Part shown: positions 7,186 through 60,509 of the stretch, piece after piece
How positions within the stretch are numbered: position 1 is the first letter of the stretch
Layout of the letters: the number at the start of each line of letters is the position of its first letter
NCBI GenBank assembly: GCA_030390025.1
Contig: CM059443.1
Span: 63,798,001 to 63,862,000 of the forward strand
Length of the DNA: 64,000 nt
Direction: 5' to 3'
From: Squalus acanthias
Lineage: Eukaryota
Position numbers and translations under genes: made by a program
Notes under the pieces: generated by a model
Seen by the model: only the letters and a program-made list of their open reading frames with translations
The model's database searches: none
Told to the model about the DNA's origin: nothing

Positions 7186-7379
7186 ACAAAAGCAAAATAC
7201 TGCGGATGCTGGAACTCTGAAATAAAAACAGAAAATGCTGGAAATACTCAGCAGGTCAGGCAGCATCTGTGTAGAGAGAAACAGAGTTAACGTTTCAGGT
7301 TGATGACGAAGGGTCATCGACCTGAAACGTTGACTCTGTTTCTCTCTCTACAACTGCTGCCTGATCTGCTGAGTATTTC
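7186..7379. mobile_element. Mini palindromic PLE insertion (family A)
   Basis: Starts with the GCAAAATACTGCGGATGCTGG tail seen at 54589. Inverted arms meet at TGATGACGAAGGGTCATCGACCTGAAACG. TSD CAGACATTA(A/G)GAGT at 7172-7185 and 7380-7393. Confidence 0.85.
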
Positions 7380-8267
7380 CAGACATTAGGAGTGGTTTAG
7401 CTTTGAGACACATGTTAATGTGTGCATGTTTTCAGAGTGAAGAAGTAGACAGCCATTATCCATAATGGCTGATTCAAAAGGATATCTTGAAAGTAAGGAA
7501 GTTGTGAACAATCGCACCGATGGCATGAAATGCTTCTTTTATGATAAAGGCGCGGCCATAGCTGCTCCTCTTTAGTTTTCTCTCAGTACTACACTGAAGT
7601 GTCAGCCTGTGGATCGTGTATAAATATTGTATTAGGAAGTCTGTATGCCCTAGAAATCTTGCAGATCATCAGACTATAAGAAATACACTTTGAAAAGAAT
7701 ATTTGATGTCCTGTGGACTGATTCAGTCGTTTTACAGTATTCATACTATCAGTATCTTTCTGTATTCTGTACAATTACACATCTTGCAAGTCATTTGATT
7801 AATAGTTTTTAACCTGAACAGTGTGTTGTTCTCTGCTTTTTGGAGAAGAAAAGCAGAAGGAGTTCATGGCGGGCCTCCAGTACAAAGTATCTCGGTGAAA
7901 GGATCATTGTTAATTCTGTAGCATGCCATTCCCTTTCACGGCACACATAAATGTGATATTGATCATAGAGGACATGGCCTGCTTATAGAAATGGCATCTT
8001 GCTGTGTAGTCAAAAAAAAGAAAGTTTGAAAAAAAGCCTGAATCATAACAGTATGGTCCTGGAGATGGAAGAAAGACACACCTGTTGAAACACTGTGGTG
8101 AGAAAAAACCCACTTGTATTTGCCTGGTAATTTTAAACCGATGAGGTATGTACTCCAACAGTAGTTTGAGTAACATCCAAACTTGAATTTGGGAGTTTTC
8201 CTGCAGAATGAAGTAATTCCCATCAGGCTGATTTTAATACCTGTTATGAATTTCTTACGTCAATGAT

Positions 8268-9120
8268 AACATAACATAAGAAATAGGAGCAGGAATAGGC
8301 CACTTGGCCCCTCGAGCCTGCTCCGCCATTCAATAAGATCACGGCTGATCTTGGGCTCAAAGCCACTTCCCAGCCCACTCCCCATAACCCTTCACTCCCT
8401 TATCTTGCAAAAATCTGTCTATCTCCACTTTAAATTTATTTAATGACCCGGCCTCCACAGCTCTCTGGGGCAGAGAATTCCACAAATGTACGACCCTCAG
8501 AGTAGAAGTTCCTCCTCATCTCAGTTCTAAAAGGGCAACCCTTTATTCTGAGACTGTGCCCCCGAGTTCTAGATTTCCCCATGAGGGGAAACATCCTCTC
8601 TGCATCTACCCTGTTGAGCCCCCTCAGTATCTTATATGTTTCGATAAGATCACCTCTCATTCTTCTAAATTCCAATGAGTACAGGCCCAGCCTGCTCAAC
8701 CTTTCCTCATAAATCAAACCCCTCATCTCTGGAATTAACCTAGTGAATCGTCTCTGAACTGCCTCCAATGCAAGTATATCCTTCCTTAAATAAGGAGACC
8801 AAAACTGTACGCAGTACTCAAGGTGTGGTCTCACCAATACCTTGTACAGTTGTAGCAGGGCTTCCCTGCTTTTATACTCCAACCCCCTTGAAATAAAGGC
8901 CCAACATTCCATTTGCCTTTTTGATTACTTGCTGTACCTGCATGCTAACTTTTTGTGTTTCATGCACAAGGACCCCCAGGTCCCTCTGAACTGTAGCATT
9001 TTATAATCTCTCCATTTAAATAATAGTTTGCTTTTTTATTTTTCCTGCCAAAGTGGATGACCTCACACTTTCCCACATTATACTCCATCTGCCAAATGTT
9101 TGCCCACTCACCTAGCCTAG
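8268..9120 (-). mobile_element. CR1 LINE 3' fragment
   Basis: ORF 8436-8912 LYKVLVRPHLEYCVQFWSPY..LEAVQRRFTRLIP..RRMRGDLIETYKI; AACAT repeat tail. Confidence 0.92.
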
Positions 9121-9989
9121 CCTCTCAGTCATTGTGTTAGGCTGGTCATTCAGTACTAGCTGATGCATGAGCTGAATTAGGTAATGCAAGCTCTGATGCT
9201 GTACTCCTAGAAACGCCTGTAAGGAAGGAATAGTAACCGCAAATAAACTATGCAGTAAAGCAGTTAAGAGAATTTACAAATATGAGTTTTTTCATTGTTA
9301 TTGCAGACAATTAACTTTTTTCCCAAGTAAAGACAACATTAAATCAATCTGGATAGCTAATAAGTCTGAACAAAACTTGGAAAACTGTTTTCTGTTCAAA
9401 CAGATTATATTTAATCCTGATCACTAGATTTTAATTATGAACTCTTGTTGACGTGTCATTTTTGTCCACATTACAAGCAGCTTACCATTTTTATAGCCCA
9501 CAAAACTGGACATATAATTATGGCCTGCCTACATCATGGCTTGCTTGGCTTCTCCACTGGTTAGTGGTGTCTCACAGTAACCAGGCCAAAAATACTCCAG
9601 TCAAACCACTAAAAAAAAGTATAAAATGTCAGACAAGGATCCAGAGATTTTATTTTAAATTTACATATTTTCTCAGTTTAGTTTTAAATTCAGAGCAAAA
9701 GTCCTGTTTTAACGTCCTGCAAGATACCTATAATATCACCTCTTTTAATATTTTAAGCAAAGTTTGCAACTATGAAAACACGGGTCTTGTTACTGCAGTA
9801 GAGTCTCTATGTTTATTTTCTCTGTCAATTCCCCACCCCTCCCCACTATCCCCTAAAGGTATTGAGTCCTTGCAGTGGTACAGTTCCATGGGTTCTGAGC
9901 ATTATCTGGGATATCACTGTCCAGCCCAATCTTGCCCTAATTGGACATCCACACCCTGGAAGTCATTAGGGGCAAGGACCTTGATTGTC

Positions 9990-13994: not shown

Positions 13995-15165
13995 AGCGAA
14001 GGGAGAAAACGTGGTGGATGCAATTTAATGCGGATAAGTGTGAAGTGATGTACTTTGGGTAGAACAACATGGAGAGGCCGTATAATCGAAGTAGTTCTAT
14101 TTTGAGGGGGGTGCAAAAGCAGAGCTACCTGGAGGGGGTGAATATTCACAAATCTATGAAGGTAGCAGGGTAGTTAACATAAGCAATAGGAGCAGGAATA
14201 GGCCACTTGGCCCCTCGAGCCTGCTCCGCCATTCAATAAGATCATGGCTGATCTTGGGCTCAAAGCCACTTCCCTGCCCGCTCCCCATAACCCTTCACTC
14301 CCTTATCTTGCAAAAATCTGTCTATCTCCACCTTAAATGTATTTAAATGAGCCAGCCTCCACGGCTCTCGGGCAGAGAATTCCACAGATTTACAACCCTC
14401 GGAGAAGAAATTCCTCCTCATCTCAATTCTAAAAGGGCGACCCTTTATTCTGAAACTATGCCCCCGAGTTCTAGATTTCCCCACGAGGGGAAACATCCTC
14501 TCTGCATCTACCTTGTCGAGCCCCCTTGTTGATAAAGGTTGGTTGATAAAGCAGTTAAGAAAGCGTATGGGATACTTGGCTTTGTAAATAGGGGCATTGA
14601 ATACAAAAGCAAGGAAGTCATGCTAAACCGTTACAAATCACTGGCTGGTATACAATTCTGGGCACCACCGTTTAGAAAGGATATCAAGGCCTTGGAGGAG
14701 GCTTACCAGGATGTTACCAGGGACGAGGGACTTGATAGATTGGAGAAGCTGGGATTGTTCTCCTTAGAGCAGAGAAGGTTAAGGGGAGACCTAATAGAGG
14801 TATTCAAAATAATGAGTGATTTTGATCGAGCAAATAGGGAGAAAGCGTTTCCTCTGGCAAGTGGGTTGGTTATCAGAGATTGTAGATTTAAAATAATTGG
14901 CAAAAGAACTAGAGGGGAAATGAGGAGAATTTCTTTCACACACAGGGTTGTTAAGATCTGGAACGTACTACCTGAAGGGGTGGTGGAAGCAGATTCCATA
15001 AGAACTTTCAAAAGGCAAATGAACATGTACTTGAAGAGGACTAATTTGCAGAGTAATGGGGAAAAGCGCTGGAGTGTGGGATTAAATTGACAGCTCCATC
15101 AAAGAGACGGTGGGCTGAATGTCCTCCTTATGTGCTGTAAGATTCTATGATTCTGCAATTCTATG
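13995..15165 (+). mobile_element. CR1 3' fragment interrupted by a younger antisense CR1 fragment at ~14176-14526
   Basis: ORF 14539-15090 (KKAYGILGFVNRGIEYKSKE..RLRGDLIEVFKIM) with ATTCTATG tail. The nested piece closely resembles 8268-8625. Confidence 0.88.
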
Positions 15166-17461
15166 ACGAGAAGTCTGCTGAGAATATGGAGCTTTTCCAC
15201 AAAATGTAGCACTTGAGAGGAATGGGAACTGGCTTCAGAGCAATCGAGGCCTAATAGCAGGTTGCCCAGGAGCCTTTAGCTATGTGGCTAGACATAAGTA
15301 TTTCTCTGCTCACGATTACTACTGCTACTACTACTGAAAAAGTTGGTGCAAGCATGAACAGGCTTCCTTCCCTGTTTTTTATACTGGCACTAACTTTTCA
15401 CTAACATTAGTGACAGGTCGAAAATACAACGAGTAGGGGTTAATTATCTTGGGCTCAATTTCAAAAAAATGTTATTATGCATCGGGATTTGATACTGTTA
15501 ATCAATACTGATCAAAATATTGCCCCTCAAAGTGCAGCAAGCTCACAAACACCTATATGCTCATTGTTATATATATACCCCATGGGCAAATATTTTTATT
15601 TTTAAAAAAAAACAATGTTTCTATTCGTTGTACAGAATGTTCTCGTAGCTTAACCTCTCAACTCATTGGCGTATTACTGCATTGTAACACACTGTAGATG
15701 TTGTGTTGAAGAAAAATTGCTGAGTTGCAATCTAATGTATGAACTTGGGCATGGTTCTAAACCACTTGAGCTTTGTTCTTGCAGTTACAAGTCTTCTGAA
15801 CTCCCTGCTTAGATTATAGTATTGAACGTGTACCCAAGTATCCATTAATCTCTGTTGTTCAGCTCATGGCCTCTTTCTCCTGACTACTATTTTCTACTCA
15901 TTCAGAGAGAAGAACATTACTGCACTTTGCATTTGCTGACAGATGGAAGAAACGGATATAATGCCATGCAGACATCACTATCTAATTTGAAAGTCTTATG
16001 CAATGTGACATTCATAGTCATTTGAAATTTGCTGCATGTGTAATAAGTGCACCGAGATTGTAATGTATTTGATTATCTCAGCCCTGTAACGTTTTCCATT
16101 TAATTGAAAGACTGGTTTGAAAAAAATCATTGCGCTGGTGACTGGATTACTGCCGCAGTTGTCACTACTTCAGCCAATTTTGGTTCGGATCGGTGAAAAG
16201 CAGATTTTGTACAGTGGGTCAAATGTGGAAAATGCTGTACAAAATATAGTCTCTGGCTCTTTAAACGATTCTAAAATGCCTTGGGTCACTTCTCATTATA
16301 ATGTGCATCAATCCAGTTGACCAGAAGACATTTCAGGTAGCTCACCTGGCCATTTGGTAACTTCATATTCTATAGAGCTGTACCTTGAGAAGTGTCTTTG
16401 ATTCCTACAAATCTCACTACCTCGAAAGTTTTCATTTTTGATTAGCTACGTGAATGCATTGTCCTGAAGACAAAAATAACTGCTTTCAAATTTTTCTTCT
16501 AATGCAGGAGATGATGTAAGGGGACCATAGCTTGTGTGGGATTTTAAAAAAATAATCCCAAAATGCCATCATCCCAATTTCTTAAAAACTGAAGTAAGCT
16601 ATTTGTAGTTAATGGCGGCAGCAGCAGCTATGCTGACTGAGCACAAATATAAATTACTCCAAGTGATGCTTACTGACCTTTCAACGTAGCCAGAGTTGTG
16701 GTTGCATGGAAATCATGCCCTAATGGAAAAGATGCAGGCAGGAAATACACCTGCATGCTCGTGATGCCCTTAATCTCTATTCCGTGTGAGCACTGAGTTA
16801 CACAACCCCTGTAAATTTGAATAAAAAACAGTAGTATCCAGTACGCTGCTTATTCTGTGCACCCAATCGCTCATTGCTCCTTTCACACAAGGGACAAGAA
16901 GAGTATGATCATTTATATTTGAGTTTACAGTGGGACACGCTTCACAAATGTGGGGAGGGCCATTGATTGATTGCAGATGTTCCATCATGATGTATTTGCA
17001 TAAAACAATTCTAAACTTCCATTGCTCCAACAGAGAAACATAATTTAAAAACAATTTTGATTAGGAAAAATGTTCATTTTCGTCATACAGCACAATGATT
17101 AGATATACAAACTGAATGTGCCTGAATTTACATAATTGCCCTGCATCCCAAATCTATCCAATTTTGGCCCTCTTCAGTCCGACTCCAATAGAATATACTC
17201 TAAGCATGCACTTGAACTTTGAAGTGCATGTAGCTATGGAGTATTCGGCATAGTGGTGATGAGAGTACTGACAGTTTAACAGTATGTTCCATAAAGGGGG
17301 TTTTGCAGGATGGGATGTCTGCAATTAAATGCAGAGTTGTGTTTACTGGCAGAATGTCATTACCATAGTGATTTCATTTATTACAATCTGCAACCACTCT
17401 GCATATCTGCAATGAATTACATAGAATTTACAGCACAGAAACAGGCCAACTGGTCTATGTC

Positions 17462-17659
17462 AATAGCAAAATACTGCGGATGCTGGAAAATTGAAACAAC
17501 AGAAAACGCTGGAAAAACTCAGCAGGCCAGGCAACATCCGTGGAGAGAGAAACCGAGTTAACGTTTCAGGTCGAAACCCTTCGACCTGAAACGTTAACTC
17601 TGTTTCTCTCTCCACGGATGTTGCCTGGCCTGCTGAGTTTTTCCAGCGTTTTCTGTTGT
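17462..17659. mobile_element. Mini palindromic PLE insertion (family A) nested in a CR1 3' end
   Basis: Near-perfect inverted arms meet at CAGGTCGAAACCCTTCGACCTG. TSD TGGTCTATGTC at 17451-17461 and 17660-17670. Host CR1 tail ~17418-17795 (minus) continues on both sides. Confidence 0.87.
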
Positions 17660-20600
17660 TGGTCTATGTCGATGTTTATGCTGCACACAAGCTTCTTCCC
17701 ACCCTACTTCTAATCCTGTCAGCATATCCTTCTCCCTCATGGACTTATCTAGCTTGCCCTTAAAGGCATCTATGTTGTTCGCCTCAATTACTCCATATTC
17801 TGAGAACAAATGAGAAATATAGCCCATATGAGAATTTGAATCTGCTTTTTACAGGAATTTTCTTTTTCTTTCGCCATTGCTTGAGCATAGTACTGCAAGC
17901 AAAACACCGTGAAACTGTGGTTTCAGTATTAAGCAACTGCACAAGCACCACGCTGTGTTCAGGCAGCAAAACAGCAATAAAACGGTCTGTTCTGAATACA
18001 GCAGTCACAATCCAGAACAGTCACATTTTTAAAAAGATGTGCAATGATAAATTAAGAGTGTTACATCCACTATGACAAAAATACATTGCTGTAAACCTCT
18101 CTCCAAGCTTCAAACTCTCCTCACTACTGGTAAGTCTTCACCTTTTGAAATTTATGAACAGAAAACATGTTTGGGATCTAATGGGACCTGAGAATAATTA
18201 TTCAGCAATATTGTTACTTGTGTACTGTTTGGTCAGGTCAGCTCAATTGATTTTTATATCTGCCAGGCCCCCAGCATTTATCCTCTGTTTTCTGTAGTCT
18301 ATGATTTTGAACCAATTTCTGGCAGTCAGCCTTGTGGTTGCTAAAAGTGAATGTACTCTTGACCTCTGGGTCAAGGAACATGCTTATGAGGAACAGTAAA
18401 GGCTGGTATAATTATCATTTCTGCTTCGAAATCAGAACTCCAGAAACTGGTACCAGATGCCTAGTGAATGTTTTTGCTTATGGAGGCACTGGGAAATGGA
18501 ATGCTTTCCCATTCTAAGCACAGTGTGTTGGAATTAAGCACGCAGCATGGATTAGATGTCAACTAAAATTCCTTGAACTCTGTTGCACCAATGTGCCTTC
18601 ACCCCAGCCACTACGGCATCAGACAATTTCCATTTCATACCCAACCACCCTTATGACCTATCTGAGTGGCACTACCAATTTATTGCCAAATTAAGAGCAG
18701 CTTTATGGTATCTGGCTATGCTTACTGAGAACTGGGTTGAAACAGTCATTTATTTCGCATAGAATTGTTACAGACAGAGGAGACTTTTTCATCCCATTAC
18801 TTCGAGCTAGATTTGAACATAATTTCATCCTTCCCCATGCCTGGAATGAGATACAAATGAACACTAGATTGTAAACCGTTTTATGAGAAGAAGCAATGGT
18901 TTCTGACTTCATCACTCATGTTTTATGCAGACCATCTCACTTGTGGACAGGAAAAACCATATCGAATACTGCAGTATTTAAATTTGTTTCAACAAGTTTA
19001 CAAGTTTCAGAATATAGTGATAAAACTGAGCACTTATAAAAATTAATTTTGACAGTTCCTTTACTATATCTTAAATTAGGAACTAGTATAAGTAGATTTG
19101 TGTTTTTATAGAATCATCAAAATTTACTGCACAGAAGGAGGCCATTCGGCCCATCATGTCTGTGCCGGCCGAATGTATCTGGGCCAAATGTGTACTATTG
19201 AGACCCAAATAACGAAAAAGGTTGTTTAAATAGGAAAATCTTGATTTTTTTTTTCTGTACATTAATTGCTTGCTTGCTTGAAGCAGAGATTAATGGCTAT
19301 TTCACAACAATTGCATATTATACGAAGAATTGGTTTACAGTGGTGTCTGCTTGAATGCACTAGTTCACTACCTTATTCTACCAATACTAGTAGTTCATAT
19401 TTACCAAAACTACAGGTCAATTATATTGTTCAAAAGCAGCAATTGCACAATTGTATTCTATCGAGTAAAGTAACTAATAGTAAGGGAGCTTATGCCTGTG
19501 AATTTCCTCAATTGCTCCCACACCACCACCGTAACTTTACCGGAAATCTAGTAGAAACCATGTTCCACCGCACTGCATACAAAGTTACAGTGGCGGAGCG
19601 GGAGCAGCACCGAGGAAATTCACAGCCTATGTGTTCAAAATATTTTCAGTTCCATTGTACAATAGTGAACTTGTGATCTACTCTTGGTTTCATGTTGTGG
19701 TAATGAGTCATGTTGATAAATACCCATGTAATATTTTTTACAGACTGGAAGCATTTTGGGATGTTTTTACTTTGTTAGTCATGTTTAACTGCAATCTACA
19801 AAACCGACCTGAATGCAATGTTTGCTGAACTGCATCTTCCTATATTGAGGTGTGTACTACTCTCCTAATTGTGTAGGGGAAGAGGTGAACATAGGAACAG
19901 TAGTCTGCCATTTGGGTTATCGTGCACACTCTATTATTTTGTTAGCCATGTTAGTGAAATTTTTATTCCAATTCCTTGCCTTTTCTCCATCTTACTTGTC
20001 AATTAAGTATTTAAAATGTCTCAATTGACTTTGCATCCGTGGCTTTCGGGGCAATGTGTTCCACAGTCTTGCAGCCCTTTGTGTGAAGAAGTTTTTCTTG
20101 GATTTGTTTTTAACTGTCTTAGTTTGGATTCTAAGACCATGCCACTTTGTTCTGAATTTCCCTACGAGAGAGATGATTCTTTCTCCATCTACCCTTTTGT
20201 TCTTGAATGGATCATATCTTAATCGTCATATCTCCAGGTAACATTGGGCCAAAATTGTGAAGTTCCACTTTTGCCATGGAGTCTTGCTGGACAACTGCAA
20301 ATATATATAAATATATCCTGGTATATTTAGCTCCCAATCTTGCCCAGGCTGCAGAAAAGTCCCTGCAATTACTACTGCATCAAACCTCTCTGTCTGGATT
20401 TCTGCTTATTTGTAACACCCCTAGTAATGGTATAAAGACAATTTTTTTGGTTGACTGCTTTCCTACTTATTGGTCCCATTGCTCCTGTTAACTTGCCATC
20501 TTTCTGTAAAACTTTCCACTTCCACTACCCCAACTTTATCCCTCTGCCCCCTCCCTCCTCATGCTATCAAGTTAAAATTTTTGATTTGCTCTTCTCCCTC

Positions 20601-23012: not shown

Positions 23013-23909
23013 TGATAAGCACAAACATTTACGCAATAATTTTTTTAATGAAAGGTCGGGACAACAAACAGCAATACCAAACTTATTTATGCATAAATGA
23101 AAACTGGATGTACTTACAAATGAAACATTCTTAATTCAACATTTTCAGACATGATTTGACTGGGCTACAGTTTATATAGATTGAGATCATTGCACATAAT
23201 AACTAAAAAAAACTTTTAGGTTCCGCATATCTTTCCTATGATACTTGCAGTAAATCTAAGAATATCTGGCCTGACAGCTAATGAGGCCCTTGTTGAAATT
23301 CAGTTTTTAAAAGTTTAGAAACTTTATTTGCTTCCTTTTAAGCGTTGCTAAATTAAGTTATTTTCAAGTTAACTGTTTGGTGTCCTATGCCATAGCTGGA
23401 ACAAATAATGAAAACAGGATAGCTGAGATTCACGTCACAACAGGATTTGGTTAAATAGGAGGAGCACTAATATAATTGGGAAAAAATATATTCTGGATTT
23501 TAAACAAATTTTATTTGATTTAGTTAATTGCAAACATGCTTTTCTAAAGATGTGAGGCAATAGATTATTTTGTTCAGTCTTGCTTCTCTCCATATCATAC
23601 ACAGCAATGAGAATTGTGTGAAACTGCTAATGGGGCAGGGTTTGTAGTCACCGTGTACTGAGCCATCCCAACTGCAGTGATCTATGAGTTGCTGTCCTTT
23701 CGATTTTAAAAACATGCATTGTACATTTTTGCAGCCAAATGAAAGCATTCAGACTATTCAGTGTTTGAGTGTTAGGGACCTGGTAATTGTTGCACTTAGC
23801 AAGTTTGCTGTTAGTAAGTTATGATGTGGAGATGCCGGTGTTGGACTGGGGTGGACAAATGTGAGAAGTCGCACAACGCCAGGTTATAGTCCAACAGTTT
23901 TATTTGAAA

Positions 23910-23947
23910 TCACAAGCTTTCGGAGCGGCTGCTCCTTCGTCAGGTGA
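23910..23947 (-). ncRNA. Minimal type I hammerhead ribozyme motif, antisense copy (family B)
   Basis: Reverse strand reads TCAC-CTGACGA-A-GGAGC(AGCC)GCTCC-GAAA-GCTT-GTGA. Confidence 0.85.
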
Positions 23948-23954
23948 ATGTCCT

Positions 23955-23991
23955 TCACCTGACGAAGGAGCAGCGCTCCGAAAGCTTGTGA
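23955..23991 (+). ncRNA. Minimal type I hammerhead ribozyme motif (family B)
   Basis: TCAC-CTGACGA-A-GGAGC(AGC)GCTCC-GAAA-GCTT-GTGA: intact core, stem I TCAC/GTGA, palindromic AAGCTT. Confidence 0.85.
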
Positions 23992-24965
23992 TTTCAAATA
24001 AAACTGTTGGACTATAACCTGGTGTTGCGCGACTTCTCACATTAGTAAGTTAGATTGAGGATTTATGGTGTGATAGTCAAAAGTTAGAAATGTTCAGAAT
24101 GAATTTTAAAGCAGTCTTGTATCTTTGAGTTGAAAACCGCTTTCAATAAAATGAAACACTTCCATCACTTTATACACATGTTCAATTTAAGCAACTATTG
24201 TTACTAGTAATGTATATTTAGCAGTCTTGGAACTGATTCCACATATGTCTTTGCTAGTAAAAGTTTGTTTAACGCAGAGAAAATGACTTGTTTTTCTGTA
24301 CTCTAGACAATAGTCTATTGCATACTTAAATGTGGTTTTCTTGAATAGGGATGTATCTGAGATGGGGAAAGTAGGTTGCATTAGAAAGTGTGCTGGTGAC
24401 AGCAGTGCATTAAACTGGCCAGATAGGCAATGGCTCAGGTGAACATGGGTTTGAAACTGAGGGCTGTGTGTATCTGTCTAATCTGCCTACTAGGTGAGTT
24501 ATCTTCGCATAGTGCTTGGTCAAGCTATCGATAGAATACCTTGTAATACTGGAGCATTCCACTTCTATAAGAATGAAAATGCTACCCTTGACTCCCGGTT
24601 TACGGAACCTCTAAGGAGATGATGGTCACTCTGAATTATCTCACATTCTCAGCCTGAAGGATTTTAGATGGAGAGAAAAAAAGATTAAAAAAGGTTGCTT
24701 TCTCTACTCATAGGCAGATTTACACTTGAAGGGGGGGAATGGAGTGAAATCAGACTGATAAATTTTAGTACCCATCTATATAGGTCAAAATCTGAGCTTT
24801 CTTTCAATGCACCCTTGCTTAATGAATATTTTGTTTCCATTTCCAGGTATGAGTTGACACAGAGCACTGATCAAAGAACTTGGTGATGAATAAAAAATGA
24901 GACTTATCAATGAATGTATTACAATGCAGTAAGCAAGGGGCATCTCATGAGCAGCTCTATGAAAA

Positions 24966-27900: not shown

Positions 27901-28181
27901 TGTGCAGTGATCAGAAGATATTAGAACCATCTGAGAAGCTGACCGCCATACTGAGTTACAAACAAGAGCTTGGACTGGATGATGTAAAGCCCGAGACTGG
28001 CAAACTGGATGCTGCTACAATAGACACTGAAATCCATTCTACCCCCAACGAAACGCAGGTCATGGTATCTGGATTGAAAGACGATGGAAAGCCTGCAGTG
28101 GGTGTGCCTGAAAGTGAAAAAGAAATCTGCTGTCCAGACAGTCATAATTCTCCCCACCTCCCCACCAAAGAAATGTAACAA
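24966..28181 (+). CDS. PEAK1: PEAK1/SgK269 first coding exon (large disordered N-terminal region); exon probably starts at 24847; apparent +1 frameshift near its 3' end
   Basis: 1070-aa ORF starts MSACNAFTEHVWKPGECKNCFKPKSLH and has the PEAK1 blocks RPPVAKKPTIAVKPTM, SWDESDEELLAMEIRMRGQPRFANFRA, NPNAYDNLAIYKSFLG, HTYEEI and KPKRWISFKSFFRRRK. Acceptor tttccAG at 24845-24846; donor GTAAGT at 28182. Confidence 0.96.
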
Positions 28182-38540: not shown

Positions 38541-38541
<1 letters not shown>

Positions 38542-38592: not shown

Positions 38593-38596
<4 letters not shown>

Positions 38597-49093: not shown

Positions 49094-49874
49094 GGCAATC
49101 GCGGGCCAACATGATACCCCTGAAGCAGCCAAGACAAGTGAAAGGAGCTTCAGATGATGCCATTGCATTTACGGGATCCACAGAACAGGAAACCATGTCC
49201 GAGAGTCAGCCAACACCACCCCCTCTTCCAAAAAAGACCATAATCCGAGCAAACACTGATCCAGCATCAAAGGACTATGTCCACAAAATGATAGAAGTGA
49301 AAAATTCTGGGCACAATGTAAACTTGGCAAACCCACTGTATGATGTAGAGTATCCTGGGGACGCAAACTGGGATGCATCAAGTGCTTGTTCCTCACTTAG
49401 TTCAGATGCCAGAATATGTGACAATGAGTCGGAGATTCGCTGGACAGAGCAGTGGGCAAGTCAGTGACAAAGGCCAGCATATCATCAACGGCCAACAGTA
49501 CTTGCAGCCTCGCCATGAGCAGCAGTAAGGAAAGGTGCTCAAATAGCTTGGATTCACTATCCGAGAAGAATCGTTTTCCTCAGAGACCTGGTAAAAGCAT
49601 ACAAAAGCCACAAAGGCATGCACTGTACAAAGGGATTGAGAACAAAGAGGAGGTGGTGATAAAGATTCGAAATCTCCATACAGACTCGCTGCGGAAACTG
49701 GCAGCTAAATGTGAGGACAAGTTCATGGAGGGCCAAAAGAACCAACTTCGCTTTGGATTGGACAACTGGTCAGACTTCAGACTGACGAGCGATAAACCTT
49801 GCTGTGAGGCAGGTGATGCAGTTTACTACACAGCATCCTATGCTAAGGACCTCTATAACCAATATGCAATCAAG
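49094..49874 (+). CDS. PEAK1: PEAK1 third coding exon (Crk/14-3-3/PTB docking motifs, SHED helix, start of pseudokinase N-lobe); apparent -1 frameshift at ~49431
   Basis: Acceptor gtatAG (49092-49093) and donor AAG|GTAAGC at 49875. Encodes GQSRANMIPLKQPRQ, PTPPPLPKK, RANT and NPLY in one frame, then LHTDSLRKLAAKCED, WSDFRLTSDKPCCEAGDAVYYTASYAKD and YAIK in another. Length is 781 nt where phases require 782. Confidence 0.95.
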
Positions 49875-49989
49875 GTAAGCGCTCAGAATGATTCTCACCA
49901 TTTTTTAATGTACCAAAATTAGGTCATCAAAAAAACCATAGCCAAGGCAGTTTTCGTGGAAAACTGGACAGAATCACAGAATCCTGGAG

Positions 49990-50175: not shown

Positions 50176-50687
50176 TAACAGCCAAGTGCTGTCGAGACTC
50201 TCACACAAATAATCACCATTTGGACGGTGTCCAAAGAAACAGTTTGCACTCTTTTCTGGTGGTGAGACGTTATTCATAGCTACTCCATTTTTTCTGCTCC
50301 TCCCAAGAGTGCAGGATAACGTTGTGCTTCTGTTCAAAGTCGACGGTTATTGGATGGACTCGAACAAAGGGATATCAATCCAGGTTCAAAATTTCAACGG
50401 TGTTTGTAGCCACCAGACTATCAACTTGTTTAACCTGGCAGAAGTATTTATAACCAGTTATATGATGTGTGAGTCCATTCAATCTTTCTCCTCGCACTTA
50501 TATTTTGCAAGTAAAGCCAGTAATCTAAATGTGATAGGAAGTCAATATTTCACCACTCTTGGAGATCAAAGTATGGCCACTGTGTCAACTAAAATTCATA
50601 CCGATTTCCTTATGAGGAGACTGTGGACAATGTTGGTGCAGATGGGGGTTTAGGTACTGCTGCAGCAAGTATGGCTTGGAATTTCCT

Positions 50688-50846
50688 GATGCGGAGATGC
50701 CGGTGTTGGACTGGGGTGGACAAAATTGAGAGGTCGCACAACACCAGGTTATAGTCCAACAGTTTTATTTGAAATCACAATCCGAAAGCTTGTGATTTCA
50801 AATAAAACTGTTGGACTATAACCTGGTGTTGTGCGACCTCTCAATT
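50688..50846. mobile_element. Mini palindromic PLE insertion (family B), hammerhead truncated
   Basis: Same sequence family as 23822-24041, with perfect inverted arms around TCCGAAAGC. TSD TTGGAATTTCCT at 50676-50687 and 50847-50858. Confidence 0.85.
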
Positions 50847-52094
50847 TTGGAATTTCCTACCAGCTACCTGTATTTATGTGATTAGTGATATTTGAGACTC
50901 ACTGCTCAACAGACAAACTCTAGGAATAAGAAAAAAAGCCATGGGTTTCATGTGTTCCTCTGGGAATGTAGCCACTTGAGCTTCAAACTTGTACATTTTA
51001 AAGAGAGTTTTTCTTTTTCCTGTCTCATAAAATATTGAGAGAATTCACATGCTTTTTGAATTACTTGAAATAAGCAGTGCAGTGTCAAATTCTTTCAAGT
51101 TTAGGTATAATTAATAACACATGTCGTTGGATAAGTGCCTTTGAATAAAGGCGCAAAAATGCAACTTTATTTAAAAATTTAGTCTCATTAACTGTGACTG
51201 TTGGTTACAGGATTTGGCAGCTTATATTAGGATTTCTGTCTTGGGTGGTCTTAAGTACTTGTCTGTAGTTTCCACTTCCTTGGATGCTTGGCAACAGCTT
51301 ATTCTTGCAAGATTTTGCTTAGACAGTCTTTATTCTGTGCTCTCGCTCAGCCCTTCACTCCAAAAGTGCTTTAAATCGAAGCATACAAACCTAAACTTCT
51401 TGAAAATTATATTTTTCTGACTTTTACAACACTTTAGCTGTCGATGCCTCAGGTGATACCTCAGCTCATCCTGCCGTACCCAACTTGCACTGCATCCATT
51501 TCTGTTTTCTGCTGTATTTGTGACTTTAAGGATAGTTGCTGTTGATAATTTTTATTTCCATGCCACTTTTATTCTTCATAACACAGCTTTACAGTCTCGT
51601 GAATAATCTTTATACATTTAAGTACAATTATTTTAACACATTCAAATTAACAAAAATATTCTCCAACAAAATTAACCCTTTGCCTTCTCGGTAGAAGTGC
51701 CACAACTTTACCCTGCCTCATTCCAGTTCCCCCACCTCCCCCTTCCCACACAATCATTGGTGTCTTCGTGGTACACTGTTAGTTCGAGGCCGGTGGTCGT
51801 TTGCAAACTCCAATTTGCAATACTCTTAATCTGCCCATCAGGAGGAGAACGAGTGGTCCACAATAGCTTTCCCTCCAATTCTCCTTTCTTTCTCACTGGA
51901 GAAAGACCATGCATTGATGGACCAGAGATTTGTTAGGGTTCAAATTCTAAAAGACTTCACGTTTTTGGGGGGGGTTTCTTAGCTTGGCAAGTATTATAGC
52001 AACTTTTAAAATCTAGTTACTGCTTTAACAGTGTATGTTGGAATACATGATCACCTGGCTTATAGTTTCTTTCTTAACCCTTTGTAACTTTGCT

Positions 52095-52365
52095 CAACCC
52101 TATCTCGAACCTCCTCCAGCCCTACAATCCCCATCGCCCCCCCCCCCCCCCCAGAGCTCTCCATCCCTCCGACTTTGGTGTCTTTTGCCCCGCCATTGGC
52201 GACCTGCCTTCAGATTCTCCAGCTCTTTGACCAAGCTTTTGGTGAGCTCTCCTACCATCTCCTTCTGTGGCTCGACGTCCATTTTAGTCTCACTAGACCT
52301 CTATGAAGCACCTTGAGCAGTGTTTCTATGTTAAAGGTGATATATTAATGCAAATTGTTGTTGTA
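52095..52365 (+). mobile_element. Degraded L2 3' fragment
   Basis: CCTCCTCCAGCCCTACAA.. with tail TATTAATGCAAATTGTTGTTG. Confidence 0.6.
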
Positions 52366-54681
52366 ATGCAGCAGTAATCCGACAAATACACAAATCTGAT
52401 TATGGACGGGTAGAAGTCTGATGAACTCAGGAACCCCTCTAGTGTATGTGGGCTCCAGTTTTAAAACCTTTGCTGTACAAAATGGCAATATGATTCCTCC
52501 CATACTCTCCATATGTTAATTCTTAGGAAGTCTCGGGAGTCATTTTTATGCAGTCTAGCATCTGCTGTTGTAATCGTGCGCTACATGTCCCCTAACCTCG
52601 TCAAGAAACACCCTTGGATAATCTTAAATTAGTTTGCACTTAGCTTCAAACTATCGGGTTGCAACGAGGAACCCACAATTTCCTGACTCTTAAAGTTGAC
52701 AAAGTCAAACAGCAGTGACATTATTCAGACAGACCTACCCCACTCCAAAGTGACAGATTGGCCGAATGAACCTGACTCCAGCTAATGAAATAATCAGTGA
52801 CTTGACGTTTTCTGTGATCCATTTTTTGCCGTCCTTGTTGGGGGGAAAGAAATGTACAAAAGTTTATCATTTATAAATGACAATGTAAAATAACATACTG
52901 ACTAGTGTTTATACCATATTGTTTCTGATAAATGACCAGACACTGAGGCCAATTATAATCTGCCTACCACTGCCCCAGCTAGAATCAACAAATACAACAC
53001 TGTGCAATGATCAAACCTGGCACCTTCCTGGACTTTATGGCTTTGTACCACACTGGATGCTGATGCACTTAACTCAGCAAGCCAGCAGTGATCTTTAGGA
53101 CTATAATCTTCATTGCAGTTGATTGCCTCCTCCTTGTTGAAATTATTCATGCTGAGTTCTAATTTTAGAAGAGCTCGAGAACGAAAGAATGTGGGAACAC
53201 AAGTCTGTTCACTCCAACCGCGAGGTCCAGTTAACCATTTGTTTTGTTATTTTTCCACCCTAAATCCATATGCCACAAATCCCTGCTGTATCTGGAATCA
53301 ATCCAATTCCCTCAGCGTTAGCTAAGCCACATTTATTGTGATTTTCCATAAATCAATGACTCTGAAGTGTTAAATTATTCCTTTAATTTGTTATTTTCTA
53401 CATAATCTCGTTCTTTTATCTTTTTGTACAGAATCCCTCTCTCGAGTCACCTTTTATTAATTGTCTTCATTATATGAAACAAATGAGTTTAATTCCCCTT
53501 ATTTTTCTCTAATGAGAATAGATTTATCTTCTGTAGCCTCCCTTCGAAGTTCAATCATTTAAAACTTGGGACCATCCTTGTTCCCTTTCTCTGCCTCCAT
53601 GGCCTGAAAATTATTGTGAGCAATTTTATCACATGATTTCTTAATGTGTTCATATCCAAGACCTCACTCCCCTGTTTTAACACAAGCATTAACGCATTCA
53701 TGTTAAACCAGTTAACGGCTCCATTAAAAACAATTTGACATGTGTTTAGCAATTGTATATTAATGTCGCCGACAGTAAGTTCTACCCTTGAGCACATGTG
53801 TAATACTCGGTGAGGTTTAACTGATGCTTCATTGAACCTGTTGGTGTGGAAATGGAACTTCAGTTTGAGTCGAACACGATGGTTGGCTGATTCGGTGTCT
53901 TTGTTTCACTCGATCGCAATTCAAATTTATTAGATTGTAGTCTGATGACAATGAAATTGCAGCGATGGCCTTTATTTTAGCAAAAGAAGATTCTCTGGTG
54001 GAGGTGTGTATCTGAAGGCCACCAGCCAGCATAATTTGTTTATTTAATGAATCAGTAATTTTATGGTGTTGCTTCAGCACTGAAGAGTTTACAGAAAGCA
54101 AGATTGTGGATGTTTTGTTCTAACAGACGATCTCTTCTGAAATGTAAATGTTACACAGTCATAACAGTTGGAATACAGAAACAGTCTCCTATACAAGTGT
54201 ACTTACCACCTGTGTTTACTCGAGTATTTTACCATTTTATCTCTTTTCTTCCCCCACCCTACACAAAGGTGCCGACTTATGCTAGGCTGGGATAGGGTTT
54301 CACGCAGGCACCACCAGACCTCTCCAACCTCACCCGAATGACTAATCATTATGTGAGTCTAGCCAGTGAATGTTGATAGGCTATCTGACAGTGGCTAGCA
54401 TCGTGGATAGCCAAGGTGTCCGCACGTGCCCACTTTCCAGCTGGGATTGATGGATCAGCAAGCAACAGTGGGAACCTCTGAAGGAATAGAAAGGGAAGAA
54501 AATCAGTCCAGTCGTCACACAGTATTTGCACTAATTGCGTCTCTAACAGGAAGGTGAAGGTGCCAGACTAATATATAGTCGTACGATAGCAAAATACTGC
54601 GGATGCTGGAAATCCGAAATAACAACAGAAAACGCTGGAAAAACTCAGCAGGCCAGGCAGCATCCGTGGAGAGAGAAAGAG

Positions 54682-54718
54682 AGTTAACGTTTCAGGTCGA
54701 TGACCTTTCATCAGAACT
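54682..54718 (-). ncRNA. Minimal hammerhead ribozyme motif, inverted copy (family A)
   Basis: Exact reverse complement of 57759-57795. Confidence 0.85.
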
Positions 54719-54978
54719 GGGAAGAGCCGGAAATCAAATAGATTTAAGGCCAGGGTAAAGCTGGGAAAAGGGGGAGGGGATAAAGGAACAAAGGGGGAGA
54801 TAAAGAGACATTAAGAGATATGCAAGGCTAGAGGTGGTGTTAATGTGACAGATTAAGGCTGAATGAAGTGTGAAATCCACTGGCAGAATGAAGGACAGCT
54901 GCCAGCTTCTAGGAGGAAAAAAAAAAGGTGGGGGGGCGGACAAATAAAAATAAAATATAAATGTGATTGGAGCTGAGG

Positions 54979-55957
54979 TTATGATCTAAAATTGTTGAAC
55001 TCGATATTGAGTCCAGAGGGCTGTAGCGTGCCTAAACGAAAGATGAGGTGCTGTTCCTCGAGCTTACGCTGCGCTTCCGTGGAACAGTGTAATAGGCCGA
55101 GGACGGTGAGGTCAGAGTGGGAGTGAAGCGGTGAATTAAAGTGACAGGCCACCGGGAGCTCGGGGTCCCCCTTACGGACTGAACGGAGGTGTTCCGCAAA
55201 GCGGTCACCCAATCTGCGTTTGGTCTCCCCAATGTAGAGGAGTCCACATCGTGAGCAGCGAATACAGTATACTAAATTGCAGGAAGTACAAGTAAATCGC
55301 TGTTTCACCTGGAAGGGGTGTTTGGGGCCCTGGACAGTGGGAAGAGGGGAGGTATAAGGGCATGTGTTGCATCTCCTGCGCGTGCACGGGAAGGTGCCGG
55401 GCGAAGGGGAAGGGGTGCTGGGGGTGGTAGAGGAGTAGACTAGGGTGTCGCGGAGGGAGCGGTCCCTACGGAATGCTGAAAGGGGAGGTGAGGGGAAGAT
55501 GTGTTTGGTGGTGGGATCACGCTGGAGGTGGCGGAAATGGCGGAGGACGATCCGTTGAATGTGGAGGCTGGTGGGGTGAAAGGTGAGGACAAGGGGAACC
55601 CTATCGTGGTTCCGGGAGGGAGGTGCAGGGGTGAGGGCAGAAGTGCGGGAGATAGAACGGACACGGTCGAGGGCCGTGTCGACCACGGTAGAGGGGAATC
55701 CTCGGTTGAGGAAAAAGGAAGACATGTCAGAAGCACTGGTATGGAAGGTGGCATCATCAGAGCAGATGCGGCGGAGACGGAGAAACTGGGAGAATGGAAT
55801 AGAGTCCTTACAGGAGGCGGGGTGGGAGGAAGTGTAGTCCAGGTAGCTGTGGGAGTCAGTGGGCTTGTAGAGAATGTTAGTCAATAACCTATCCCCAGAG
55901 ATGGAGATGGAGAAGTCGAGGAAGGGAAGGGAAGAGTCGGAGATGGACCATGTGAAG
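54979..55957 (-). pseudogene. Inverted, more deeply truncated duplicate of the PLE ORF C-terminus (thumb + GIY-YIG)
   Basis: ORF 54979-55884 is nearly identical to the C-terminal ~300 aa of the plus arm (IHYK/ILYK and EHLHS/EHLRS differences). Confidence 0.9.
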
Positions 55958-55961
55958 AAGC

Positions 55962-57500
55962 GGTAGACCCATCGTTTCAGCCTGTTCTTGCCCCACGGAA
56001 CTTATCTCTTCCTATCTCGACTCTATTTTTTCTCCCCTTGTCCAGTCTCTTCCCACCTACATCCGCGACTCTTCCGATGCCCTCCGCCATTTTAACAGTT
56101 TCCAGTTTCCCGGCCCCAACCGTCTCCTCTTCACTATGGACGTACAATCCCTCTACACCTCCATTCCCCACCAGGATGGCCTGAGGGCGCTCCGCTTCTT
56201 CCTTGAACAGAGGCCCAACCAGTCCCCATCCACCACCACCCTCCTCCGCCTGGCTGAACTTGTTCTCACATTGAACAACTTTTCCTTTGACTCTACCCAT
56301 TTCCTCCAAATTAAAGGTGTTGCTATGGGTACCCGCATGGGTCCTAGCTATGCCTGCCTTTTCGTGGGATATGTGGAACACTCTTTGTTCCAGTCCTACT
56401 CGGGTCCCCTCCCTCACCTCTTTTTCCGGTACATTGATGACTGTATCGGTGCCGTCTCCTGCTCTCGCCCTGAACTAGAACATTTCATTCACTATGCTTC
56501 CAATTTCCACCCTTCCCTCACCTTCACATGGTCCATCTCCGACTCTTCCCTTCCCTTCCTCGACTTCTCCATCTCCATCTCTGGGGATAGGTTATTGACT
56601 AACATTCACTACAAGCCCACTGACTCCCACAGCTACCTGGACTACACTTCCTCCCACCCCGCCTCCTGTAAGGACTCTATTCCATTCTCCCAGTTTCTCC
56701 GTCTCCGCCGCATCTGCTCTGATGATGCCACCTTCCATACCAGTGCTTCTGACATGTCTTCCTTTTTCCTCAACCGAGGATTCCCCTCTACCGTGGTCGA
56801 CACGGCCCTCGACCGTGTCCGTTCTATCTCCCGCACTTCTGCCCTCACCCCTGCCCCTCCCTCCCGGAACCACGATAGGGTTCCCCTTGTCCTCACCTTT
56901 CACCCCACCAGCCTCCACATTCAACGGATCGTCCTCCGCCATTTCCGCCACCTCCAGCGTGATCCCACCACCAAACACATCTTCCCCTCACCTCCCCTTT
57001 CAGCATTCCGTAGGGACCGCTCCCTCCGCGACACCCTAGTCTACTCCTCTACCACCCCCAGCACCCCTTCCCCTTCGCCCGGCACCTTCCCGTGCACGCG
57101 CAGGAGATGCAACACATGCCCTTATACCTCCCCTCTTCCCACTGTCCAGGGCCCGAAACACCCCTTCCAGGTGAAACAGCGATTTACTTGTACTTCCTGC
57201 AATTTAGTATACTGTATTCGCTGCTCACGATGTGGACTCCTCTACATTGGGGAGACCAAACGCAGATTGGGTGACCGCTTTGCGGAACACCTCCATTCAG
57301 TCCGTAAGGGGGACCCCGAGCTCCCGGTGGCCTGTCACTTTAATTCACCGCTTCACTCCCACTCTGACCTCACCGTCCTCGGCCTATTACACTGTTCCAC
57401 GGAAGCGCAGCGTAAGCTCGAGGAACAGCACCTCATCTTTCGTTTAGGCACGCTACAGCCCTCTGGACTCAATATCGAGTTCAACAATTTTAGATCATAA
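55962..57500 (+). CDS. 5'-truncated PLE ORF: reverse transcriptase + Cys-rich linker + GIY-YIG endonuclease
   Basis: Open frame from GRPIVS (55962) through MDVQSLYTSIP, QIKGVAMGTRMGP, RYIDD, LPFLD, CTRRRCNTC and LVYCIRCSRCGLLYIGET to EQHLIFRLGTLQPSGLN, with no internal stops. Confidence 0.93.
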   Translation, partial: GRPIVSACSCPTELISSYLDSIFSPLVQSLPTYIRDSSDALRHFNSFQFPGPNRLLFTMDVQSLYTSIPHQDGLRALRFFLEQRPNQSPSTTTLLRLAELVLTLNNFSFDSTHFLQIKGVAMGTRMGPSYACLFVGYVEHSLFQSYSGPLPHLFFRYIDDCIGAVSCSRPELEHFIHYASNFHPSLTFTWSISDSSLPFLDFSISISGDRLLTNIHYKPTDSHSYLDYTSSHPASCKDSIPFSQFLRLRRICSDDATFHTSASDMSSFFLNRGFPSTVVDTALDRVRSISRTSALTPAPPSRNHDRVPLVLTFHPTSLHIQRIVLRHFRHLQRDPTTKHIFPSPPLSAFRRDRSLRDTLVYSSTTPSTPSPSPGTFPCTRRRCNTCPYTSPLPTVQGPKHPFQVKQRFTCTSCNLVYCIRCSRCGLLYIGETKRRLGDRFAEHLHSVRKGDPELPVACHFNSPLHSHSDLTVLGLLHCSTEAQRKLEEQHLIFRLGTLQPSGLNIEFNNFRS

Positions 57501-57758
57501 CCTCAGCTCCAATCACATTTATATTTTATTTTTATTTGTCCCCCCCCCCACCTTTTTTTTCCTCCTAGAAGCTGGCAGCTGTCCTTCATTCTGCCAGTGG
57601 ATTTCACACTTCATTCAGCCTTAATCTGTCACATTAACACCACCTCTAGCCTTGCATATCTCTTAATGTCTCTTCATCTCCCCCTTTGTTCCTTTATCCC
57701 CTCCCCCTTTTCCCAGCTTTACCCTGGCCTTAAATCTATTTGATTTCCGGCTCTTCCC

Positions 57759-57795
57759 AGTTCTGATGAAAGGTCATCGACCTGAAACGTTAACT
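57759..57795 (+). ncRNA. Minimal type I hammerhead ribozyme motif in the PLE 3' region (family A)
   Basis: AGTT-CTGATGA-A-AGGTC(ATC)GACCT-GAAAC-GTT-AACT: conserved CUGANGA/GAAA core, 5-bp stem II, palindromic ACGT in place of stem III, stem I AGTT/AACT. Confidence 0.85.
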
Positions 57796-60509
57796 CTCTT
57801 TCTCTCTCCACGGATGCTGCCTGGCCTGCTGAGTTTTTCCAGCGTTTTCTGTTGTTATTTTTAATATATAGTCGTGTCATTTTAATGAGTCTTCGATGCC
57901 TGACAACTTCCTCTACACTTAGTTTTTGCACAATTGCATGGAGTCTCGCTTACATATAATTGTTAACTCTTTGCTTTTAGTAAGGTTTTCATTCTTCCTT
58001 CCAATTTTTTTATTATTTCATGTTGTGAAATTAACCAGATTGAAAAAATTACTGGGATTTAAAATTCTCCATTTAGATACAGTTTTGATTTTGCCCTGAT
58101 TAGTAGCCAAATGAAAATGTGTTTCTCCTCACAAAAGCAGATAATGCCAGCTGGAGAATGTCTGGCCTCTGCCTTGTCACTGCGCCTGCGAATACTCTAG
58201 GAGGGTAATGTGAGACGTGAGACAAGCCTAGGATATACTAGTAAAATACTTTCAACAGGGAAGGTCGTGCTAAAGGGGGCAGGGAATAATTGCCGGCAAT
58301 TGTATTAAGTGTTGTGTTAATTAAAGTTTGTTAGTTCAGTCAAGAGATTTTAAATGTGGGATTTCCTCAATGGCTTCAAGTAATTAATGCATTGCTGGTG
58401 AGGTTCTGAGCTCGGAATGTTCTCGGTTCAATCTCTGCTCTGAGCCGAGTCACCATCTTTTTAAAACATATTTCTTATCAAATATAGAACTGATGTTAGA
58501 AAGTTCTTCAAAGAGTGCGCAACCCTTGCAGCTAGATCTGTGAAGGCAAAAGTCTCGGAGTCAGTTAAGATAAAAGGACTTCAAACTGCAGCCTGTGGGC
58601 AACATGTGACCTTAAAGTCATGGCAATTCAGCTTACAAAGCCCAGGCAACTTGGCTCTGTTTGCATTTGTGCTGCTTACTGGCTGGCCTGCCCCTGTTTT
58701 GAATGTTGTGGGCCTGGAGAGTTGGCAAGGGCTGTTCTTAGTGCTGTTGTTCCCTCATTGGTGAATGGATTCTAAATCAGAACTCTAAGATCTGTTAGTA
58801 TCAGCAATTTGAGTTCTATAAAAAAAAATAAGAATAAATATCTGTGTGTCCCTGAGGTTTAATGGTGCACAGACCATGGAAACAAAAGCTTTGGACGTTC
58901 CTGATTTAAAAGGCAGTTGGATGAGCTAGGAAGTGGCATGCATGGCCTTTTTCCACCTGTCTCTCTTCTGGTCAAGCTCTCAACTAAAAATGGTACCTCT
59001 TCCTTTCCCCAGGATCTGAGTGGTGTGTACTGTAACACACCGAATTGGCTACACTGATAAAATTGATCAAATATCTAATTTCCTGTTAATTTTTTGTAAT
59101 TTTTACCAAGTTAGTTAGTATAGCTCATAACTGTGAACAAAAGCATTTCTTGGGAAGCTGCAAAGGGGATTCAGCATTCGAAGATTAACTGAAACTTCTA
59201 CCTTAATGAACTGAGAGTCTTTTGGGGGGTTATTGCTTCCAGCATTGGTGTTCTAGTTAAGTTACCCGGTAATTCATTCCACTACCTTTTGGATAAAAGG
59301 AACTTATCGACCTCCGAGCTGGCAGATCTTTCATTTCTGTCATTTTCTTTTTGTGTTGTTTTCCCCCTGCGTGACTTTGATGGATCACAAGCACCGTCGT
59401 ACGAGGTTTCCATTAGGGTTTCAGCTGGACTGGCTGAACTTTGAGACTCCAGAGGTTGTTTACAGTGAATTATAAAGCACTTTACTCCTTCGAGACCAGC
59501 TCAAACCGTTCCTCACTGACAATTCAGTCAGTTGAAATACAAGTTTATTGCCTTGTTAACAACTTTTTGTGACCAAGGGTGGATTCGAGATCCTTGTTGA
59601 CCCATTCTTTGGATAATAAAGTCGTTTTTTTAGTTCCTAGTGTGATGTAGAACTTTACTACAGCGCATTTGTTAAGCAGATAGCCTAGTCTTAATGCAAA
59701 GATGCTTAATTCAAAACATTCAATAATTCAATTTTTAGGACTAACATCCCACTTTGCTGTGTTATTTTACTAAACTCACATGATTGGATAAATTTACATC
59801 TTTTTAGTGCACTACACAACTTAGAATTATCAGGAGTGGACTGTGTGGTTGTTTGTGATGCGTCTTCCCAAGAAAAAGACAGACTGGATGACTGAGGGAT
59901 GAGACGCACAGTCAAGTCTGTCAGTCTGACCTATCTTCAGTTTGAGAAAGTGGTTCCCATGTACAGCAGTTCTTGTTATCAATCATGCCCCTTCCCCCCC
60001 CTGCCCCACAACCAACTCCAATTTTCTCCCCTCTTCTGAAAACAGTCGCTCGTGCAGGGTTATATTTCCATGGGCATCGCCCATCATTCAGTACCTTACC
60101 AATGTAACCCTCCTGCATGTTACAGCCTGGACAGTGAATACTGGCAAGCTATTTGGTGCTGGAGGCATCATATAGTCAAGCCTGGTTGTGCCCTCACTCA
60201 TATGTTCATGCTACCGACAGATACCATTCAATCGCAATCAAGGGCTCTTACTGCCATCACAGCCGAGATCAGCTCATACAGCACAGACTGCAGATCAAAC
60301 CTGGGATCTTCCGAATCCCTCTGGTTCAGCTTCACAGTTGGGAATGTATTTTCTAACTGGAAGTGTCTGGATGTTTCTCCCCTCCTCCCACGATCCTTGC
60401 CAAGGAAGATTGGTCATTTGTTGTGTCTGCTGCTGCTTTGGCTGAATAAATACTGCTGCTAAATTTGCATTTTTATAATTTTGTCTGTCACATTTTATTT
60501 TCCAGTATT

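Follow-up and report, generated by a model that had tools for sequence, protein, structure and literature searches.

How do Penelope-like retrotransposons come to leave short palindromes whose arms meet at a hammerhead ribozyme? The question is raised by a 64,000-nucleotide stretch of the Squalus acanthias genome (GCA_030390025.1, contig CM059443.1, positions 63,798,001 to 63,862,000; hereafter the window), which contains five inverted insertions of two such families, here called A and B. Of earlier studies, PMC8557442 calls the function of the ribozyme unclear, and PMC11167929 leaves the later steps of integration unvalidated. The original prediction for this locus was that the folded ribozyme sets the point at which synthesis of complementary DNA (cDNA) stops or switches. 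We propose instead that the five elements are tail-out inverted insertions and that the short ones probably represent two run-off cDNAs of a capped 5' leader joined end to end.

The boundaries, target-site duplications (TSDs, 11-14 bp) and junctions of all five insertions were verified (Table 1). In each, the antisense arm carries the terminal 'tail' and the sense arm does not, falling short by 55, 34, 38, 36 and 34 nt in order of position; the original prediction had put this deficit at about 35-55 nt. The arms of the long element are 99.4% identical and its inversion point lies within the open reading frame (ORF), at about 55957. All four short copies have their junctions in or beside the hammerhead motif, as was first noted; positions are counted here from the C of the CUGA motif in the core, taken as 0. 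In the family B copy at 23.95 kb the start-site zone described below forms the end of both arms, the loop II variants differ between the arms, and the junction is one T away from another genomic junction whose antisense arm ends at the initiator plus an extra base. Only four arms in the window retain complete hammerhead cores (23943 minus, 23959 plus, 54714 minus and 57763 plus), and no further family A or B copies were found within the 64 kb.

Both families are Penelope-like, as had been proposed. The frame of family A encodes a reverse transcriptase (RT) followed, in one ORF, by a C-terminal GIY-YIG endonuclease (Pfam RVT_1, E=1.3e-5; GIY-YIG, E=7e-4; both below the curated cut-offs), and the family B frame matches RVT_1 (E=3.3e-5). 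No PDB sequence matched the family A ORF at E<=1. The two ORFs are about 32% identical over residues 71-506, endonuclease included, and both contain a CX4CxxC linker between RT and endonuclease, in keeping with the CX2-5CxxC linker given as a trait of the Neptune and Nematis clades (PMC8557442). The pseudo-long terminal repeat (pLTR) with a hammerhead, the partial tandem or inverted layout, the one-sided tail and the variable TSD are likewise those of endonuclease-bearing (EN+) Penelope-like elements. Both families are abundant, with 29,120 (A) and 34,667 (B) exact tail-anchor matches in the 3.7-Gb genome. At one family B locus (L075) the tail runs up to an ATG, from which 498 open codons extend to the end of the locus. 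The family B pLTR is therefore also a 5' leader, and in this family only, the short arm corresponds to the stretch from initiator to ATG.

The motif in both families corresponds to a minimal type I hammerhead as defined in PMC4209133, with a CUGANGA/GAAA core, stems I and II and a palindromic stem III; in family A, cleavage is predicted between 57791 and 57792, and the mirror core lies at 54714 on the minus strand. An Rfam search of the window returned no hammerhead match at E<=1, only sub-threshold hairpin families, and minimum-energy folding produced stems I and II in the two B copies tried and in neither of the two A copies. In family B, loop II is highly variable in length and sequence, while the pairing of stem II is preserved. 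Upstream lies a predicted core promoter: a box of TTAAA type (A) or TATAT (B) precedes an initiator-like A by 25-33 nt in 18/19 family A and 15/16 family B long references (spacing -29 to -33 in A). In family A the initiator lies at -4 and coincides with the first base of stem I; in family B it lies at -7 or, in shifted-initiator subfamilies, at -13.

Arm ends were mapped on natural long copies for 229 tail-anchored elements (114 A, 115 B). The sources were the window itself, 60 loci found by pattern, 20 arbitrarily chosen regions of 10 kb and, within the first 15 Mb of contig C1, 120 regions surrounding listed matches. Family A comprises 54 palindromes, 40 short solos and 20 long copies without a second arm in the locus; the corresponding figures for family B are 89, 13 and 13. 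Short solos are common in A (40/114) and rare in B (13/115). Another 180 loci, selected for the sequence of a junction or a motif, served solely to check TSDs, compare arms and examine extra bases. Genome-wide counts come from sequence-pattern searches, and base tallies are hand counts of the first 100 matches listed.

Across 168 family A and 204 family B arms, the rate of arm ends per nucleotide is 0.22% (A) and 0.13% (B) in the 3' flank (+95 to +31), 0.56 and 0.53% in the cleavage zone (+30 to +26), 1.1 and 0.9% in the hammerhead interior (+25 to +1), 3.7 and 4.1% at 0 to -9, 0.35 and 0.8% from -10 to -40, and 0.27 and 0.33% from -41 to -149. Ends at 0 to -9 number 37 in family A, against 2.8 expected, and 58 in family B, against 6.0 expected. 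Breakpoints thus do not follow a smooth length decay and do cluster at the hammerhead, as originally predicted, but the genome-wide peak falls just 5' of stem I and not within the core. In pattern searches that take one subfamily motif per count and pass through a first-base filter losing about a quarter of true ends, 2,025 family B matches break directly before the initiator A and 13,240 continue, at most 2 of 95 listed continuing matches ending at -9 to -14, a sharp upstream drop; in family A, 546 matches break at -4 and 589 at -3 (84 true ends among 100 listed in each case), while among 100 listed of 6,497 continuing matches 13 end by -6 and 87 pass through -12. In the shifted-initiator subfamilies, 8/75 arms end at -12 to -16 (p=0.023 against the unshifted subfamily).

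This distribution bears directly on the possibility that a folded hammerhead, or a protein bound there, stalls RT or triggers template switching and so fixes the fold-back point. Such a stall would fit the placement of all four short window junctions, the identity of the family A initiator with the first base of stem I, and an interior end rate of about 1% per nucleotide against 0.1-0.3% in the 3' flank (interior ends are roughly 4-7 times commoner than ends in the stretch 3' of the ribozyme). Because RT comes from the 3' side, however, a stall at the fold would be expected near the 3' strand of stem I and the cleavage site, where the rate is low (0.5%), and the family B peak at -6/-7 lies beyond stem I (-4) and shifts with the initiator. 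Further, of the family A solos with a TSD, 12/17 end at 0 to -9 and none inside the motif. Family A interior ends number 38 in palindromes and 5 in solos, compared with 21 and 16 for ends at 0 to -9 (p=0.002). A role is left for the ribozyme in these interior ends, which in family A occur mostly in palindromes and are rich in microhomology.

Many arms that end at the peak carry an extra base, most often G, before the initiator A. In family B the base at this position is G in 77, A in 14 and T in 9 of the first 100 matches listed; in family A it is G in 51, A in 22 and T in 11 of 84 matches (16 with mutated long templates dropped; p=3e-9). One base inward, the G excess is weak or absent in the controls of both families. 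A machine check of the first 30 matches listed per search, restricted to bases explained by neither the other arm nor a long template, gave G in 7/10 (B) and 12/16 (A) cases, against 4/15 and 4/18 in its controls. A first tally on unselected copies, small and made with a crude template filter, gave G for 2/13 free bases in A and 6/14 in B. The extra G occurs on both arms in several copies. In LINE-1 and SVA insertions, an untemplated 5' G has been ascribed to copying of the cap (PMC3287187), and a stalled RT would not be predicted to add it. Two RNA contig runs (X1 and X5) contain inversion joints at -2 to -5 of family A, but these may be DNA and are unable to show transcript starts, so they are not counted as support.

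The lengths of the two arms are coupled. Among palindromes with a TSD of at least 9 nt, family A has 31 short-short, 11 long-long and 1 mixed pair (n=43) and family B has 51, 23 and 9 (n=83), so that 116/126 pair like with like. Since short pairs with short and long with long, the stop belongs to the template and not to each RT pass; independent stalls at a fold would not be expected to produce such pairs. Together with the position of the peak and the extra G, this makes a block by the folded ribozyme unlikely as the main cause of the arm ends.

The likelihood that a single cDNA (or antisense template) folds back and self-primes at a palindrome, its second arm being copied from the first, is lower still. 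This model, that of PMC3846280, would fit the microhomology and short palindromes seen at junctions and the subfamily variants that the arms usually share in B (of the site-by-element counts, 356 are concordant and 82 discordant, where random pairing would give 613 discordant). Nevertheless, in 20/43 (A) and 31/83 (B) palindromes it is the tail-less arm that extends further 5', by more than 5 nt, which is impossible for a copy of the first arm and therefore excludes simple fold-back copying. The extra G can occur on both arms, and different, recurring loop II variants occupy the two arms of 15/58 family B palindromes (a hand count in a partly selected sample); the model is contradicted for most copies. 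Because of these 15 palindromes we conclude that two templates are used at least sometimes, although slippage, or two differing pLTRs on one RNA, may also give rise to mixed arms. Random pairing of templates across all subfamilies was rejected, with 54 discordant counts against 245 expected and 82 against 613. A separate proposal, that one loop II variant marks only the arms ending at the start site, was not supported.

From these patterns we infer a start site, a cap, a protein dimer and a joining route as follows. RNA polymerase II would begin transcription at the initiator-like A, some 30 nt behind the TATA-like box, so that a capped RNA, not cleaved by the ribozyme, would open with the hammerhead. 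A dimeric RT-endonuclease would then nick both target strands 12-15 nt apart and, by analogy with the anole element Poseidon in vitro, start one cDNA at each limit of the tail. cDNAs begun on the 5' pLTR would run off after about 100-135 nt, the cap perhaps being copied as an extra C, while those begun on a downstream pLTR would pass through the hammerhead and give long arms. The two cDNA 3' ends would be identical in sequence and could therefore anneal only via inverted repeats. The hammerhead helices may supply these, the arms being joined by microhomology, and trimming back to the helices would place many junctions inside the ribozyme.

Junction sequences are consistent with such joining. 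Overlaps of at least 3 nt are present at 11/20 (A) and 14/29 (B) insertion-free junctions, against 9% expected, and the mean overlap is 2.6 and 3.8 nt, respectively, against 0.7 expected. TSDs are 8-17 bp long, most often 14-15 bp in A and 12 bp in B, and their sequences are distinct in 51/51 (A) and 119/122 (B) cases. The flanks of 55 12-bp TSDs, with homologous targets not corrected for, seem symmetric, C preceding 73% of them and G following 56%, the expectation of two similar nicks. Three sets of family B copies (L053, L054 and L067; L018, L151, L201, L046 and L060; L141, L171 and L070) have differing junctions within near-identical flanks, which suggests repeated independent insertion into the same sites of other repeats.

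That the short palindromes form a non-autonomous family able to propagate itself, or are DNA-transposon miniature inverted-repeat transposable elements (MITEs), is highly improbable. Their size is fairly uniform (mostly 150-260 bp), and one junction appears in about 35 of 100 listed from 1,722 matches. Short junctions are nevertheless distinct in 37/39 (A) and 52/54 (B) copies, 89/93 together, and in the 4 B and 3 A copies compared no junction was found to be inherited with private variants. Recurrent junctions lie at microhomologies and are shared between subfamilies: the four B copies, whose junction is on a 4-nt microhomology, differ in subfamily single-nucleotide polymorphisms, 3' ends and flanks, and the A junction is present in two subfamilies. 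Because their TSDs vary in length, the insertions are not DNA transposons, and instead of symmetric terminal inverted repeats they have one arm without 34-55 terminal nt; here, too, the original prediction held. Nor are they non-LTR retrozymes with head-to-tail tandem hammerhead units, as the window and the parsed copies yielded only inverted pairs, solos and long copies. Finally, there is next to no likelihood that arms end by hammerhead self-cleavage or, in family A, at a spliced 5' end: the cleavage-zone rate is slightly above that of the 3' flank (4/144 and 5/187 ends), the family A upstream sequence is acceptor-like and the intron of D. virilis Penelope ends at helix I (PMC4209133), but only about 0.5% of family B arms end at the cut, 200 listed matches reveal no common exon-1 sequence ahead of the family A ends and many of them keep the AG, and family B has no acceptor there. 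In line with the original prediction, cleavage does not set the ends; its low figure comes from 3,361 family B matches that break at the site, among 100 listed of which 5 are true ends, 92 belong to a subfamily and 3 are mutated, set against 42,575 copies that span it. In that subfamily CUC replaces CUU at the predicted cleavage triplet.

Several observations weigh against run-off at a capped start site. Family A ends are spread across -2 to -6, and the upstream sequence, with a pyrimidine-rich CAG before the core, resembles a 3' splice site. The shifted-initiator result rests on 8 ends. The contrast between solos and palindromes is seen in A only, the family B solos (3 interior ends, 3 at 0 to -9) being too few to tell. 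Insertions take the place of overlaps at 15/35 (A) and 25/54 (B) short junctions. As for the extra base, RT can add untemplated bases at any end, the family A control one base inward shows a slight G excess (G34/T37/C13, 16 dropped; p=0.048), and 12/19 G in the family B machine check are also explained by the other arm. RNA raw-read run X24 gave 0 reads on either family, and run X22 gave 0 on family B. The junction of pLTR and ORF, seen in B only, was not found for family A in 380 loci. The sample is drawn largely from the first 15 Mb of a single contig, and selection by an exact or near-exact match to the tail biases it towards young copies.

Run-off of two cDNAs has parallels in LINE-1 twin priming, where two primers serve one target, and in retroviral strong-stop DNA, a short run-off cDNA. 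Full-length LINE-1 and SVA insertions share the cap-derived G and microhomology at 5' junctions (PMC3287187). Unlike in these systems, the two cDNAs here would begin close to one internal site, which yields a tail-out palindrome, and the run-off product itself has been integrated a great many times. Closer relatives are the EN+ Penelope-like insertions described in PMC8557442 and PMC3846280, which likewise have an inverted 5'-truncated pLTR copy, a tail of 30-40 bp on one side only and a variable TSD. In those accounts the tail results from resolution by the endonuclease and the inversion from self-priming, whereas the present data point to separate priming of two cDNAs and locate a likely start site by means of the cap-like G. 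A rotifer pLTR has been noted to contain a putative TATA box together with an initiator-like TCACT (PMC3846280), and a TATA-less internal promoter has been described in D. virilis Penelope (PMC2377424).

In vitro, Poseidon of Anolis carolinensis nicks and extends both strands; ribozyme cleavage is not needed, uncleaved RNA is the template, two internal RT start sites bound the tail and a dimer is predicted (PMC11167929). Poseidon belongs to a different clade, without the linker zinc finger, and its ORF starts inside the hammerhead, whereas that of family B starts at the tail end. The terms 'inversion', 'palindrom' and 'transcription start' are absent from the main text of that report. The minimal hammerheads of metazoan Penelope-like elements described in PMC4209133 share the short stem I, the extra base before stem II and the palindromic stem III, and opposite-strand pairs 100-700 bp apart were already noted there; the motif here lies no further than 4-13 nt from the likely 5' end of the RNA, a placement that the accessible text of PMC4209133 does not state. 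MITEs are also short, non-coding, hairpin-shaped and high in copy number, but have a fixed TSD and symmetric terminal repeats; non-LTR retrozymes (10.64898/2026.07.22.740005) are short, non-coding and high-copy, with a pLTR-derived hammerhead, but no tandem arrays occur here. In contrast to both, the junction of the present elements is made anew at each insertion. Inverted pLTRs, the tail, minimal hammerheads and the element type are already described; the present analysis adds a sharper proposed mechanism, differing from that of the original prediction. Searches of the main texts of open-access papers turned up no description, for Penelope-like elements, of cDNAs running off a capped start or of coupled arm lengths.

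The copies provide in-genome evidence for twin priming and against self-priming and cleavage-defined ends, and they predict the start site to the base. For annotation, very abundant hairpin repeats of this kind should be classed as retrotransposon stubs, not as MITEs or microRNA precursors. More tentatively, the dimer might make its two cDNAs, at least sometimes, from two RNAs held together by the palindromic stem III. Sited at the capped 5' end, the ribozyme would then be an RNA-pairing module and, since cutting there would remove the cap, a switch between translation and packaging, only uncut capped RNA being integrated. We regard this extension as doubtful; if true, the tens of thousands of short palindromes would constitute a fossil 5'-end map of these elements.

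Table 1. Features of the two Penelope-like families in the window. Junction positions are counted from the C of the CUGA motif in the core (0).
Feature	Family	Position	Strand	Length	Arms and parts	Junction	TSD
Short palindromic insertion	A	7186-7379		194 bp	Antisense arm 7186-7307, sense arm 7304-7379	7.3 kb: +10/+1, 4-nt overlap	7172-7185 / 7380-7393, 14 bp, 1 mismatch
Short palindromic insertion	A	17462-17659		198 bp		17.58 kb: +4/+12, 5-nt overlap 17579-17583 (core end vs loop II)	17451-17461 / 17660-17670, 11 bp
Short palindromic insertion	B	23822-24041		220 bp	Antisense arm to 23948, sense arm from 23953	23.95 kb: -5/-6, 4 extra nt 23949-23952	23811-23821 / 24042-24052, 11 bp
Short palindromic insertion	B	50688-50846		159 bp	Antisense arm ends 2 nt 5' of predicted cleavage site; sense arm starts in stem II 3' strand	50.78 kb: blunt, 50780/50781	50676-50687 / 50847-50858, 12 bp
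Long inverted insertion	A	54583-57861		3279 bp	Antisense arm ~1375 nt, sense arm ~1905 nt		54569-54582 / 57862-57875, 14 bp
5'-truncated open frame	A	55956-57500	+		Reverse transcriptase, CX4CxxC linker, GIY-YIG endonuclease
Predicted core promoter	A	57730-57759	+		TTAAA box 57730-57734, initiator-like A 57759; mirror 54747-54718 minus
Minimal hammerhead motif	A	57759-57795	+		Stem I 57759-57762 with 57792-57795, core from 57763
Minimal hammerhead motif	B	23955-23992	+		Core from 23959; mirror core 23943 minus

The remainder of the window contains open frames at 8436-8924 (minus) and 14536-15090 (plus) that we take to resemble the C-terminal part of CR1/L2-type long interspersed nuclear element (LINE) reverse transcriptases; the first has no Pfam match. 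Large exons of a PEAK1-like pseudokinase gene lie at 24963-28178 and 49428-49922 on the plus strand, the second matching PDB 6bhc (E=1.6e-44), and the elements at 50.7 and 54.6 kb are downstream of this second exon, likely in an intron. A long degenerate tandem tract rich in (CA)n/(TG)n at about 61350-62620 gives rise to spurious His/Thr-rich frames.

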